Source: Eledone cirrhosa (taxonomy: Eukaryota). Taken from it: DNA of 64,000 bases. Location: contig OZ024741.1 of NCBI GenBank assembly GCA_964016885.1, forward strand, positions 332,072,001-332,136,000. Reading direction: 5' to 3'. Positions 50,745 to 64,000 of this stretch are shown here, piece after piece. Numbering within the stretch: the first letter of the stretch is position 1; the number at the start of each line of letters is the position of its first letter. Under the pieces are notes generated by a model. The model was not told the DNA's origin and made no database searches. It was given only the letters and a program-made list of their open reading frames with translations. The translations under genes were made by a program, and so were the position numbers.

Positions 50745-53425
50745 TGGTGGTGGTAGTGATGATGATGGTTGTGGTGTTGGTGGGAGTGGGGGTGGTAGTG
50801 ATGATGATGGTTGTGGTGTTGGTGGGAGTGGGGGTGGTAGTGATGATGATGGTTGTGGTGTTGGTGGAAGTGGCGGTGGTAGTGATGATGATGGTTGTGG
50901 TGTTGGTGGGAGTGGGGGTGGTAGTGATGATGATGGTTGTGGTGTTGGTGGAAGTGGCGGTGGTAGTGATGATGATGGTTGTGGTGTTGGTGGGAGTGGG
51001 GGTGGTAGTGATGATGATGGTTGTGGTGTTGGTGGTAGTGGGGGTGGTAGTGATGATGATGGTTGTGGTGTTGGTGGGAGTGGGGGTGGTAGTGATGATG
51101 ATGGTTGTGGTGTTGGTGGAAGTGGCGGTGGTAGTGATGATGATGGTTGTGGTGTTGGTGGGAGTGGCGGTGGTAGTGATGATGATGGTTGTGGTGTTGG
51201 TGGTAGTGGGGGTGGTAGTGATGATGATGGTTGTGGTGTTGGTGGGAGTGGCGGTGGTAGTGATGATGATGGTTGTGGTGTTGGTGGGAGTGGCGGTGGT
51301 AGTGATGATGATGGTTGTGGTGTTGGTGGGAGTGGGGGTGGTAGTGATGATGATGGTTGTGGTGTTGGTGGTAGTGGGGGTGGTAGTGATGATGATGGTT
51401 GTGGTGTTGGTGGGAGTGGCGGTGGTAGTGATGATGATGGTTGTGGTGTTGGTGGGAGTGGCGGTGGTAGTGATGATGATGGTTGTGGTGTTGGTGGGAG
51501 TGGGGGTGGTAGTGATGATGATGGTTGTGGTGTTGGTGGAAGTGGCGGTGGTAGTGATGATGATGGTTGTGGTGTTGGTGGGAGTGGGGGTGGTAGTGAT
51601 GATGATGGTTGTGGTGTTGGTGGAAGTGGCGGTGGTAGTGATGATGATGGTTGTGGTGTTGGTGGGAGTGGGGGTGGTAGTGATGATGATGGTTGTGGTG
51701 TTGGTGGAAGTGGCGGTGGTAGTGATGATGATGGTTGTGGTGTTGGTGGGAGTGGCGGTGGTAGTGATGATGATGGTTGTGGTGTTGGTGGGAGTGGGGG
51801 TGGTAGTGATGATGATGGTTGTGGTGTTGGTGGTAGTGGGGGTGGTAGTGATGATGATGGTTGTGGTGTTGGTGGGAGTGGCGGTGGTAGTGATGATGAT
51901 GGTTGTGGTGTTGGTGGTAGTGGGGGTGGTAGTGATGATGATGGTTGTGGTGTTGGTGGGAGTGGCGGTGGTAGTGATGATGATGGTTGTGGTGTTGGTG
52001 GGAGTGGCGGTGGTAGTGATGATGATGGTTGTGGTGTTGGTGGTAGTGGCGGTGGTAGTGATGATGATGGTTGTGGTGTTGGTGGGAGTGGGGGTGGTAG
52101 TGATGATGATGGTTGTGGTGTTGGTGGTAGTGGGGGTGGTAGTGATGATGATGGTTGTGGTGTTGGTGGTAGTGGGGGTGGTAGTGATGATGATGGTTGT
52201 GGTGTTGGTGGTAAAGGCGGTGGTAGTGATGATGATGGTTGTGGTGTTGGTGGTAGTGGCGGTGGTAGTGATGATGATGGTTGTGGTGTTGGTGGTAGTG
52301 GCGGTGGTAGTGATGATGATGGTTGTGGTGTTGGTGGGAGTGGGGGTGGTAGTGATGATGATGGTTGTGGTGTTGGTGGTAGTGGGGGTGGTAGTGATGA
52401 TGATGGTTGTGGTGTTGGTGGTAGTGGCGGTGGTAGTGATGATGATGGTTGTGGTGTTGGTGGTAAAGGCGGTGGTAGTGATGATGATGGTTGTGGTGTT
52501 GGTGGTAGTGGCGGTGGTAGTGATGATGATGGTTGTGGTGTTGGTGGTAGTGGGGGTGGTAGTGATGATGATGGTTGTGGTGTTGGTGGTAGTGGGGGTG
52601 GTAGTGATGATGATGGTTGTGGTGTTGGTGGTAGTGGCGGTGGTAGTGACGATGATGGTTGTGGTGTTGGTGGTAGTGGTGGTGGTAGTGATGATGATGG
52701 TTGTGGTGTTGGTGGTAGTGGGGGTGGTAGTGATGATGATGGTTGTGGTGTTGGTGGTAGTGGTGGTGGTAGTGATGATGATGGTTGTGGTGTTGGTGGT
52801 AGTGGCGGTGGTAGTGATGATGATGGTTGTGGTGTTGGTGGTAGTGGGGGTGGTAGTGATGATGATGGTTGTGGTGTTGGTGGTAGTGGGGGTGGTAGTG
52901 ATGATGATGGTTGTGGTGTTGGTGGAAGTGGCGGTGGTAGTGATGATGATGGTTGTGGTGTTGGTGGTAGTGGTGGTGGTAGTGATGATGATGGTTGTGG
53001 TGTTGGTGGAAGTGGCGGTGGTAGTGATGATGATGGTTGTGGTGTTGGTGGGAGTGGTGGTGGTAGTGATGATGATGGTTGTGGTGTTGGTGGGAGTGGG
53101 GGTGGTAGTGATGATGATGGTTGTGGTGTTGGTGGGAGTGGGGGTGGTAGTGATGATGATGGTTGTGGTGTTGGTGGTAGTGGTGGTGGTAGTGATGATG
53201 ATGGTTGTGGTGTTGGTGGGAGTGGGGGTGGTAGTGATGATGATGGTTGTGGTGTTGGTGGGAGTGGGGATGGTAGTGATGATGATGGTTGTGGTGTTGG
53301 TGGTAGTGGTGGTGGTAGTGATGATGATGGTTGTGGTGTTGGTGGAAGTGGCGGTGGTAGTGATGATGATGGTTGTGGTGTTGGTGGGAGTGGGGATGGT
53401 AGTGATGATGATGGTTGTGGTGTTG
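50745..53425. repeat. 42-bp minisatellite, about 64 copies
   Basis: Unit ggtggtagtgatgatgatggttgtggtgttggtgg(g/a/t)agtgg(g/c/t); period visible directly. Confidence 0.98.
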
Positions 53426-54734
53426 GTGTTGGTGGTGGTGTTGGTGATAGTGATAGTGATGATAGTGGTAGTGATAGTGATGATGATGGTAGTGCTGTTG
53501 TTGTTGGTAGTGGTTGTGGTGGTGATGGTGGTAACAATTGTGGTGGTAGAATTTGCATTCGGGTAAATGGCACAAAGTTGAAACCATTCAATGTGGGTGT
53601 TGGACTCTGTCAAGGGTGTGTACTGTCACTACAGCATTGACATGTGCAGTCGGGCTGGAAGTGATATCAAGAGCAGCAGGTGTAGGATCACTTGGCTGAA
53701 ATTTGCAGATGACATGTGTATGTGTATGTATGTATTATGTATGTGTAGGCCTTTCCCCCCACTTAAAAAACCTCAAAGCACAGGCATTGCTTGTTCAGGA
53801 TATGTTACAGGTTCGTGTGGCTGGCCGTAGCCTAAAAGTGCACCAAACTCTATAATCTGACCAGCGTTTGCAATACTCTCAGCAGAGTTTGCAGCCATCA
53901 TGTGTGTATATGTATGATGATAATGTAAATTATTGTGTACAGTGCTCAGATGCACTACAACTCATCAAAGGTGTATGTATAGTACATAGAATAATGTACA
54001 AATGTCAGGAAAATGAACAGTGTATGAGTCATGATATACATACACACACACACATAGAGAGACATAAGGGCGCCTACTTCAAACAGTGGAAGGATCACTG
54101 AGATAGTGTGTCGAGGCATGGGGGCGGGGGGACAACTGCAAATGAGATGAGAAACTGAACTCCACCAAATATGTAATTTATTTCCCTAGGCTATGGTCAG
54201 ATTTTTTTTCACAAACTTTGTATATCTTTGTGCACACACATGTGCAGCTAACTCAATATACGTTTTTTCTAAAAAAATATTTTTTTTATTTCTACCACTT
54301 TTCACTCTCTATCTTTCTATTTCATCTTTTGTTTCTGATTCTATCTTCCAATGAAGGACTAGTGTCTGAAACGCATCTTTAAATACATATATCTATATCT
54401 CTCTCTTTCTCTGACAATTTGCAGCACATAAAAGAAGCAAGACCAGAACATTATCAACATCAGGAAAGGGACAGAACTGAACATCTCTGACAACAACAAC
54501 TACTTCAACAACAACAGCAACAAAAGATAACCTGTACTTAAGCAGTGTTTTGTTTTTTTTACCAAAGACCCAACAGTCCACTGGTCAAGCAACAACAGCA
54601 ACAACAAAAGCTAATTTGTAATCTGTAGTTCACCAATGTTTTTGACCAAATACCCAACAGCCCACAGGTTGAACAACAATTGACACAGTAAGTAAATTCT
54701 GTGACACCTGGCCAAAGGTTACTGCAGATAGATT

Positions 54735-60279: not shown

Positions 60280-60465
60280 ATTGTTTCTACTTTTGGCACA
60301 AGGCCAGCAATTACCCAGTGTATTACTGGTACTTTATTTTATCGACTCCGTAAGGATGAAAGGCAAGGTTAACCTCAGCGGGATTTGAACTCAGATCGTA
60401 AAGGGCCGTAACTCTATGCTGCAAAGCATGGCGCCCGACCCTCCACCGATACTGCCAATCCAACT
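60280..60465 (-). mobile_element. Deu/Nin-like SINE
   Basis: Closely matches 18870-19062. Confidence 0.85.
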
Positions 60466-60651
60466 TCCATAATACAATATGGTTAGCATTAGAAACCAAG
60501 CCAGAAACAGTTCTGTATGAGCAAAGCCAGGTCACCTGATCTGACTTATCTCACAATGAGACAACTTGTCTAATCCATGCTAGCATGGAAAATAGATGTT
60601 AAATGGTGATGATGATAATGATGATACATCAACACATAGAAATTATAATAA

Positions 60652-61775: not shown

Positions 61776-62281
61776 TTAACCCTTTTACTGCCATATTTTT
61801 AATGAAAACACTGCTTATTATTTTCAAATCATTTTGAAAATAAACAAGAATTGGGGAAAGATTTAATTAATAAAAATAATTTTCTCATTATTAAGCTCGT
61901 GTAGGGGTGATGGATTGGCAGTATCGGTAAGACGTCAGACAGCCTGCTTTGCAGCATAGAGTTATGTTCTTTTACATTCTGATTTCAAATCCCACCAAGG
62001 TTAGCTTTGCTTTTCATCCTTACGGTTTCGATGAAACCTCAGTGTGCTACTGGTACTTACCAGTAGCACACTGAGGTTTATTTAATTGACTTTCCCCATC
62101 CCTAAAATTATTGGCCTTGTGCCTAAATCAGAAACAATTTTTAAGCTGGTTTTTGGAGCAACGCTTAACAAAGGTTTTTATATAATATCATGATGGAAGG
62201 TTTTTATAAATATAAATATATAAAGTTTTGTATTGTAGAAAAACAGGTGATTTCAGGTGGTTGTGTATCAGAAGGGTTAAC
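61776..62281. mobile_element. piggyBac-like MITE with a nested Deu/Nin-like SINE (~61903-62140)
   Basis: ttaaccctttt ... gaagggttaa termini; the SINE interrupts the ttaagct motif. Confidence 0.6.
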
Positions 62282-62805: not shown

Positions 62806-62859
<54 letters not shown>

Positions 62860-62863
<4 letters not shown>

Positions 62864-64000
62864 GAAAGACGTAAAATAAGAAAATTATAAAAATTAACTT
62901 ACTTACTAAAATTTCACTCCAACTAATTAGTTTCTGAAAGGGAATAAACATGGTTTCCGAATGGAGCAACATGGAGAATACCTTTCGTCACCAGGAAGTC
63001 AATTCTCAGCTAAGTTACCAGGCGATGCGTGGACACAGGGAACTTATACAAAAATAATTCAGTGGATGGAAAAAAGCAAGTGAGGACTAAATTCCAAGAC
63101 ATTGAAAAAATCACTGCCTACTTGGTCGGTGGCAAATTCAAAAGAATCAATCACGTGACATCGAGGTTAATCAGTGAGGAGTGGGGTGTTAAGAAGACAG
63201 TAGCCGAACTATTACTATGAACTATAGTAGCAGTTTTGGCAAATTTCTGCTCAACAAAATAATTTGGAGATAACTATAAAGAATTTGTATATCTACCAAC
63301 ATATATATACAGATGCATACCTATGCTAGCAAATATATAGGTTTTGTCTTAGTAACTTTGTGGTTCAATGCTAGGGGATGCAGAACAATTATATGAAAGA
63401 TGTAAAATAAGAAAATTATTCTCCAAGGTATTCTCCATGTTGCTCCATTCGGAAACCATGTTTATTCCCTTTCAGAAACTAATTAGTTGGAGTGAAATTT
63501 TAGTAAGTAAGTTAATTTTTATAATTTTCTTATTTTACGTCTTTCATATAATTGTTCGGCATCCCCTTGCATTGAACCACAAAGTTATTAAGACAAAACC
63601 TATATATTTGCTAGCATGGGTGTGCATCTGTATATGTATGTTGGTAGATATACAAATTCTTTATAATTATCTCCAAATTATTTTGTTGAGCAAAAATTTG
63701 CCAAAACTGCTACTATAGTTCATAGTAATAGTTCGGCTACTGTCTTCTTAACACCCCACTCCTCACTGATTAACCTCGATGTCACGTGATTGATTCTTTT
63801 GAATTTGCCACCGACCAAGTAGGCAGTGATTTTTTCAATGTCTGGGAATTTAGTCCTCACTTGCTTTTTTCCATCCACTAAATTATTTTTGTATAAGTTC
63901 CCTGTGTCCACGCATCGCCTGGTAACTTAGCTGAGAATTGACTTCCTGGTGACGAAAGGTATTCTCCATGTTGCTCCATTCGGAAACCATGTTTATTCCC
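62860..64000. mobile_element. 531-bp unit present as two inverted, differently permuted greater-than-unit-length copies
   Basis: atatgaaaga(c/t)gtaaaataagaaaattat at 62860 and 63391; inverted copy aaggtattctccatg at 63425 and 63956; both periods are 531 bp. Confidence 0.85.

Follow-up and report, generated by a model that had tools for sequence, protein, structure and literature searches.

Head-to-head insertions of a non-coding 531-bp hammerhead element in Eledone cirrhosa, probably mobilised by a Penelope-like protein

Introduction

Metazoan non-LTR retrozymes are described as non-coding, AT-rich units with a type I hammerhead (PMC7229834; bioRxiv 10.64898/2026.07.22.740005), which occur as monomers to short tandems in genomes that also hold Penelope-like elements, PLEs (PMC7229834). 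Their units span 51-972 bp according to the preprint, which models retrozyme sequence as derived from the pLTR of a PLE (bioRxiv 10.64898/2026.07.22.740005). For EN+ PLEs of the Neptune/Nematis kind, the accounts in PMC8557442, PMC3846280 and PMC11167929 give partial tandems with an inverted 5'-truncated copy, a one-ended tail of 30-40 nt, a microsatellite bias and two internal start sites of reverse transcription. A PLE protein cuts both strands and extends them, starting at two internal sites by which the tail is defined; in vitro, this was reported to occur without strand preference between the two start sites, and a hammerhead was not required for insertion (PMC11167929). What causes the inverted arms and the one-sided tail of PLEs, and whether a hammerhead or a circle is needed, is an open question in the field (PMC8557442; PMC11167929).

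The family analysed here was noticed in a window of 64,000 nucleotides from Eledone cirrhosa (contig OZ024741.1), and, as judged from its sequence, it has the features expected both of a non-LTR retrozyme and of a non-autonomous PLE. With the retrozymes it shares the non-coding AT-rich unit, the type I hammerhead, the range from monomers to short tandems and the presence of PLEs in the same genome (PMC7229834; bioRxiv 10.64898/2026.07.22.740005), and its unit length of 531 bp falls inside the published range. Unlike the non-LTR retrozymes described in PMC7229834, it forms mostly head-to-head insertions of one to two units with two fixed ends in (TA)n, its hammerhead has a loop II of about 38 nt, an accessory hairpin and a pseudoknot, and it is known here from DNA alone; the terms 'inverted' and 'target site' were not found in the accessible text of that paper. 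LTR retrozymes, which carry a type III hammerhead in their LTRs and make a 4-bp TSD, do not match, as the topology is type I and an LTR pair is absent; a TSD is unreadable in (TA)n. With EN+ PLEs the family has in common all the features listed above except the tail length, which is 115 nt here, and it differs from them in having no ORF (PMC8557442, PMC3846280, PMC11167929). Inverted arms and a one-sided tail have thus already been described for known elements. A literature search, mostly of open-access main texts, found no strict short/long pairing of ends for a retrozyme, no tail as long as 115 nt and no template-dependent flanking repeats. The family is of interest since it offers thousands of short, fully readable insertion products that follow a strict short/long rule, a naturally core-mutated copy and a one-base template difference that tracks the flanking microsatellite, each of which would permit a direct test in the existing in vitro PLE system.

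Architecture of the insertion

The copy in the window consists of two head-to-head arms of the 531-bp unit (561 and 772 nt), flanked by (TA)n on both sides. Positions in the unit are numbered U1-U531, with U1 at 63425 on the plus strand. The left arm (62859..63419, minus strand, 561 nt) runs from U97 to U126 of the next pass and thus has its 3' end at what we call the short start site, U126; it adjoins a (TA)n tract at 62809..62863 (TRF), which may be target, insertion product or both. The right arm (63425..64000, plus strand, and on to G000:C2:332136196) runs from U1 into the next pass, where it stops at U241, the long start site, 196 nt beyond the window end and next to a second (TA)n, after which a LINE-like fragment was read by eye. 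The two start sites are separated by the 115-nt 'tail' (63551..63665, plus strand), for which two hairpins are predicted (z -3.2). At the junction (63417..63424, plus strand), a 3-nt overlap and a 5-nt templated insert (U8-U12) together repeat U5-U12.

The repeat structure given in the first-pass annotation was borne out, apart from its extent. The direct repeats at a spacing of 531 are present (62859-62888/63390-63419 and 63425-63469/63956-64000), the inverted arms agree at 98% (62940-63419/63521-64000) and 100% (62859-62984/63425-63550), the reiterated junction reads TATTCTCC+AAGGTATTCTCC, and the left flank is (TA)n as described; the extent has to be corrected, since the window cuts the element and the right arm is really 772 nt long. 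The unit has 35% GC and a longest Met-ORF of 93 aa, and an ORF for RT and GIY-YIG is absent from it. Five uncommon variants, including a change of A6 to G in the hammerhead core (A6G), are present in every covering pass of this copy, and no parent with its haplotype was found in the assembly.

The hammerhead motif

A complete type I hammerhead motif lies on the minus strand at 62916..63007, with a predicted cut between 62921 and 62920. It holds the pseudoknot leader, stem I, the core with A6G, stem II with the accessory hairpin and the palindromic stem III; its catalytic box (62988..62994, minus strand) reads CTGGTGA, and the family majority is CTGATGA. On the plus strand, the beginning of the right arm carries the 3' half of a hammerhead without a core (63425..63493, predicted cut site 63488|63489), and a second hammerhead (63933..64000) is interrupted by the window edge, with the leader at 63933-63938, stem I at 63941-63945, the core at 63946-63952 and the accessory hairpin at about 63967-63991. 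The family motif is read as a leader GAGAA(T), stem I ACTTC/GGAGT, the box CTGATGA, an extra C, stem II GAAAGG/CCTTTC, an extra A and then GAAAC-TAATTA-GTT with the palindromic stem III, which places the predicted cut at U64|65. In subfamily B, stem I is the perfect ACTCC.

The first-pass annotation had likewise proposed a hammerhead at the right-hand end and noted that position 6 of the core is a G in either copy. A type I motif is indeed present and the G was confirmed, but the stretch GAAAC-CAT-GTT (63983-63993) that was taken for the 3' part of the core lies in the accessory hairpin of loop II: its sequence is not kept in subfamily B, while GAAAC-TAATTA-GTT, located 23 nt further downstream, hardly varies and has after it a partner for stem I, which had been called not obvious. 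In the plus-strand copy this true 3' core box falls immediately outside the window. Of 55 aligned rows, 53 have an intact A6, and the other two, with G, belong to the copy in the window.

Searching a consensus with Infernal had been suggested as a check. The Rfam hammerhead models gave no match (E<=10) to the unit, as represented by the window stretch and four loci. The alignment shows the core boxes, stems I-III and compensatory pairs. Base pairing is kept in 95.7% of cells across 28 rows, compared with 35-51% in slid controls, and double-sided changes affect four pairs, two in stem II and two in the accessory stem; as these rows represent only 3-4 lineages, this amounts to about four independent events. 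RNAalifold recovers stems I, II and the accessory stem unaided, and the sense strand folds better than its shuffles (z -3.8; antisense -1.0; 30 shuffles). The pseudoknot between the leader and loop II is invariant within the family. Folds of the monomer draw the core CUGAU into pairing with stem III and so give an inactive conformation, and this predicted sequestration is in line with activity as a dimer or with the assistance of a protein. A single base is missing at the predicted cut site in one of the 115 ribozyme rows listed, which had been chosen for their intact anchors. A reading as a type III hammerhead was rejected, as the required GUA is GGA in most rows and a G stands at U499 in 42 of 52.

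The minimal hammerheads of PLEs described in PMC4209133 likewise have an extra nucleotide after position 9, G10.1-C11.1, a palindromic stem III, a 6-bp stem II and a 5-bp stem I, and pseudoknots between stems I and II are given for about 40% of hammerheads in PMC3088659. In contrast to the hammerheads set out in these two papers, the present motif has an extra A before GAAA, a GUU cleavage triplet and the hairpin in loop II with the leader pseudoknot, although this architecture may already be shown in figures or supplements of hammerhead papers. A hairpin in loop II combined with the leader pseudoknot was seen in five unrelated families of the assembly. The same layout with other complementary pseudoknot letters was found in L052/L192/L198 and in L070 by a descriptor scan, which gave no match in block-shuffled DNA, and by eye in L061 and L039. 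Three of these pseudoknotted repeats are located at L061:1180-2510 (a head-to-head pair), L070:820-1200 and L039:2980-3270. In the fetched loci taken together, over ten additional hammerhead families are grouped near the same (TA)n tracts, several of them as tandems (L061:8046-9100, period about 500) or inverted pairs.

Copies, ends and pairing of the arms

In the 3.0-Gb assembly, a 22-mer from the 3' arm of the ribozyme has 9,169 exact, dispersed matches (control 0), with a tandem spacing of about 520 to 570 bp among the matches listed, and 2,477 unit candidates were counted genome-wide (40 scored), so that the unit is not a chance arrangement. At least three subfamilies can be distinguished. 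The 116 distinct loci that were examined (70 of subfamily A, 23 of B with about 82% identity to U, and 23 of C with about 89%) are the best-scoring matches of five queries, by which long and young copies are over-represented; the arms of subfamily A diverge on average by 1.8% from the family majority. These loci comprise 58 head-to-head pairs, 50 single arms and eight complex cases, and the longest array has about four units (L013). A sister retrozyme family with a unit of 459-467 bp and 2,415 candidates (L052:6678-7420; L215-L239) has the same pseudoknotted hammerhead layout and two ends 105 nt apart, and it keeps the first tail hairpin after its short site.

When the start and end phases of the copies were mapped, as had been proposed, the 187 arms of the 116 loci were found to have two fixed 3' ends and variable 5' ends. 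In total, 162 arms end at U126 (93) or U241 (69). Both start sites end in TATA and thereby match the target, unlike the anole element, whose start is given as not homologous to the cut DNA (PMC11167929), and a TA run lies within 10 nt of 91 of the 93 short and 52 of the 69 long ends. Among the 58 pairs, 13 have a non-canonical end and were left out; of the 45 that could be classified, 41 combine one short and one long end (p=5e-9 against 0.5), and this combination also holds for 13 of 15 pairs among loci found with internal queries. Pairing of this strictness is quantified here for the 531-bp family, which sets it apart from the available descriptions of EN+ PLEs (PMC8557442, PMC3846280, PMC11167929).

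The variable 5' ends are concentrated at U60-90, a short way 3' of the predicted cut, where they were counted for 35 of the 187 arms against about 11 expected. The peak lies at U70-77 rather than at U65, and this cluster fits the end of a cut RNA as well as stalling of the RT on the fold. The inner junctions of the 58 pairs are variable, with a BLAST overlap in 34, none in four and short inserts in 20. In L1 twin priming, an inverted arm is primed by the second target strand, the inner junction shows microhomology and the second priming site is variable. Our pairs resemble that process in the proposed origin of the inverted arm and in the inner-junction microhomology, and they differ in the fixed position of both priming sites and in arms whose overlap can reach whole units. 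A hairpin-rich repeat (L003:1209-1453, L089, L103) likewise has two ends against TA, at a distance of about 80 nt, and in L089 and L103 it is joined to the unit with no TA between them.

Priming, template and mobilising protein

We think that the family is a non-coding 531-bp hammerhead element that is mobilised in trans by a Penelope-like RT/GIY-YIG protein through two-ended priming at two fixed RNA sites, and we give this reading a probability of about 0.75. The copy family, the hammerhead structure and the fixed ends of the arms all speak for the retrozyme or Penelope-type origin that had been suggested at the outset. The protein would cut both strands in (TA)n, and cDNA would be primed from each DNA end at the two fixed internal RNA sites, so that each arm would represent a first-strand cDNA; the two arms would then be linked through microhomology or through short templated inserts such as the one at 63417-63424. 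Each arm, on its own strand, is antisense to the ribozyme strand and begins at a (TA)n end, which is what two target-primed first strands should look like. The extension of both target strands from two internal sites by a PLE protein (PMC11167929) supports this reading, and the lack of a strand preference between those sites in vitro counts against it. As a cut linear monomer would permit only 62 or 177 nt from the two start sites, longer arms must cross the predicted cut site. Arms longer than one unit, 97 of 187 in this query-biased sample, agree with the earlier proposal of greater-than-unit reverse transcription and would result from read-through of the ribozyme junction, either on a unit-length circle or on an uncut multimer.

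That proposal had also included a switch of the RT onto the opposite strand, and a fold-back, either through a strand switch or through self-priming with an antisense template (PMC3846280), in which one RT makes both arms, has to be weighed against two-ended priming. Near-mirror junctions with phases within 15 nt, found in 8 of 58 pairs (3.4 expected by chance), indicate that a minority may be fold-backs, and rare variants common to both arms would also suit that mechanism. Against this, both outer ends are fixed start sites, and some pairs join different templates (L021; element-to-PLE junctions L016, L132). In the copy in the window the phases are offset by 96 nt, and the left cDNA offers only 126 nt to a right arm of 772 nt, which excludes a fold-back there unless an antisense RNA ends exactly at U241; for the family as a whole we consider it improbable. 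Far less probable still is a local inverted satellite or an assembly artefact. No Logan contig of four runs bridges the junction, but then no contig spans the element at all, and the two arms have a divergence of 2% and different phases, 57 further head-to-head pairs occur on many contigs with a junction of their own each, and the dispersion of the motif matches is equally at odds with a local origin.

The more serious question is what the template was. The same enzyme and two-ended priming could act on linear RNA that is transcribed through a tandem genomic copy and left uncut, with a dispensable ribozyme and with units homogenised by gene conversion or unequal exchange. This is a real contender, which we nevertheless hold at somewhat less than even odds, and a unit-length circle, as judged from the sequences, would have a little more than an even chance. 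The linear template gains from A6G in both arms of the copy in the window, which was probably ribozyme-dead when it was copied, so that cleavage in cis would not be needed for every insertion; an uncut linear template and a circle cut in trans are equally thinkable in this case. An A6G lineage that is itself mobile was considered and rejected, as there are four exact matches, of which the two outside the window lack the other variants and have the G in one pass only. Likewise in favour of linear RNA, mutation of the hammerhead leaves insertion normal in vitro, and the main substrate is reported to be unprocessed RNA (PMC11167929), two register-specific shared variants occur among 2,313 three-way sites, and L013 has nested, DNA-level patterns. 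The latter is a four-unit array (L013:974-3070) whose nested variant patterns suggest an expansion at the DNA level after insertion.

The variants shared between passes favour a single unit that was copied repeatedly. In subfamily A, inherited variants agree between successive passes in 27 of 27 cases (3.2 expected), and rare variants common to passes remain in 12 of 195 cases outside L013 (about 0.75 expected), which counts against the linear template. Within one arm, moreover, locus-private variants recur between passes no less frequently than they do between in-register arms (1.9 versus 1.0 per kb, a comparison inflated by L013), and the ribozyme pairs are kept, with compensation, across subfamilies. 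Concordance is weaker in B (18/36) and C (7/11); part of the discordance in B probably stems from the (CT)n end described below, and one column has no explanation. Gene conversion can mimic such sharing of variants. An A-to-I imprint was also looked for and rejected, as sense-strand A>G equals T>C in subfamily A (61 vs 82; rate ratio 1.04) and B and C gave nothing significant.

Mobilisation in trans by a Penelope-like protein is likely, and the partner itself is inferred, since no pLTR homologous to the unit was found in 40 of 10,598 GIY-YIG candidate loci of the genome. The same 40 loci contained no autonomous element that shares unit sequence, and the only two unit matches in them are separate copies set off by (TA)n. 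One autonomous RT+GIY-YIG element (L059:3357-8240, minus strand) has a CX4CX2C linker, frameshifts and a partial-tandem pLTR, and by the linker criterion given in PMC8557442 it belongs to the Neptune/Nematis type. Copies of this element have two ends in (TA)n that are separated by a 66-nt tail, and they form short/long head-to-head pairs at 10 of 39 loci and no long/long head-to-head pairs, in a sample for which the query selected the long end; a descriptor scan found no hammerhead in the L059 pLTR. Among the 116 loci, retrozyme arms are joined head-to-head directly to this Neptune-type element in L016 and L132, both as short/short, and one arm is joined to another repeat in L089, although these direct joins may also be nested insertions.

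Flanking microsatellites

The flanks of subfamily B differ from those of the other subfamilies at the long site. There, the internal template of B reads CTCT, which is expanded in none of 21 internal passes, whereas 15 of 18 terminal long ends (L131-L155) have at least four CT units before (TA)n; genome-wide, exact patterns gave 183 expanded and 9 unexpanded B ends. Subfamilies A and C, which differ by one base, are without CT expansion, and all 16 short ends of B pass straight into TA. A TA-CT-TA target was found nowhere in the other fetched DNA, which indicates that (CT)n arises at or after insertion. In-phase (CT)m beside (AT)n is mostly long elsewhere too (39 cases with m>=4, six with m=2), and this background does not separate stutter of the RT from later slippage. 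Among 48 single arms, the TA run is longer at the 3' ends than at the 5' ends (median 36.5 versus 9.5 nt). A search for empty sites returned a match for two of the 116 loci, and the one that was informative already has a TA stretch of 6-23 nt.

That (CT)n comes from RT stutter rather than from later slippage is therefore a tentative reading, to which we lean less than to its counterpart. A fuller model is unlikely as a whole. In it, a Penelope-type RT dimer would prime both break ends at two fixed sites on a circle made by the ribozyme, with a structured RNA module between these sites, would continue beyond its start and would stutter on the first bases in a telomerase-like manner, thereby writing the adjoining microsatellite, (CT)n where the template reads CTCT and (TA)n in the other subfamilies. 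If this model were true, the 'microsatellite targeting' of PLEs would in part be synthesis, and retrozymes would be a source of microsatellites in repeat-rich genomes.

Other repeats in the window

Two further repeats were observed in the window. A 42-bp repeat at 50745-53448 has 64 copies with 96% identity (TRF), and its period is a multiple of 3. Inverted 135-nt copies at 60337-60471 and 61902-62036 share 78% identity and probably belong to a SINE-like repeat.
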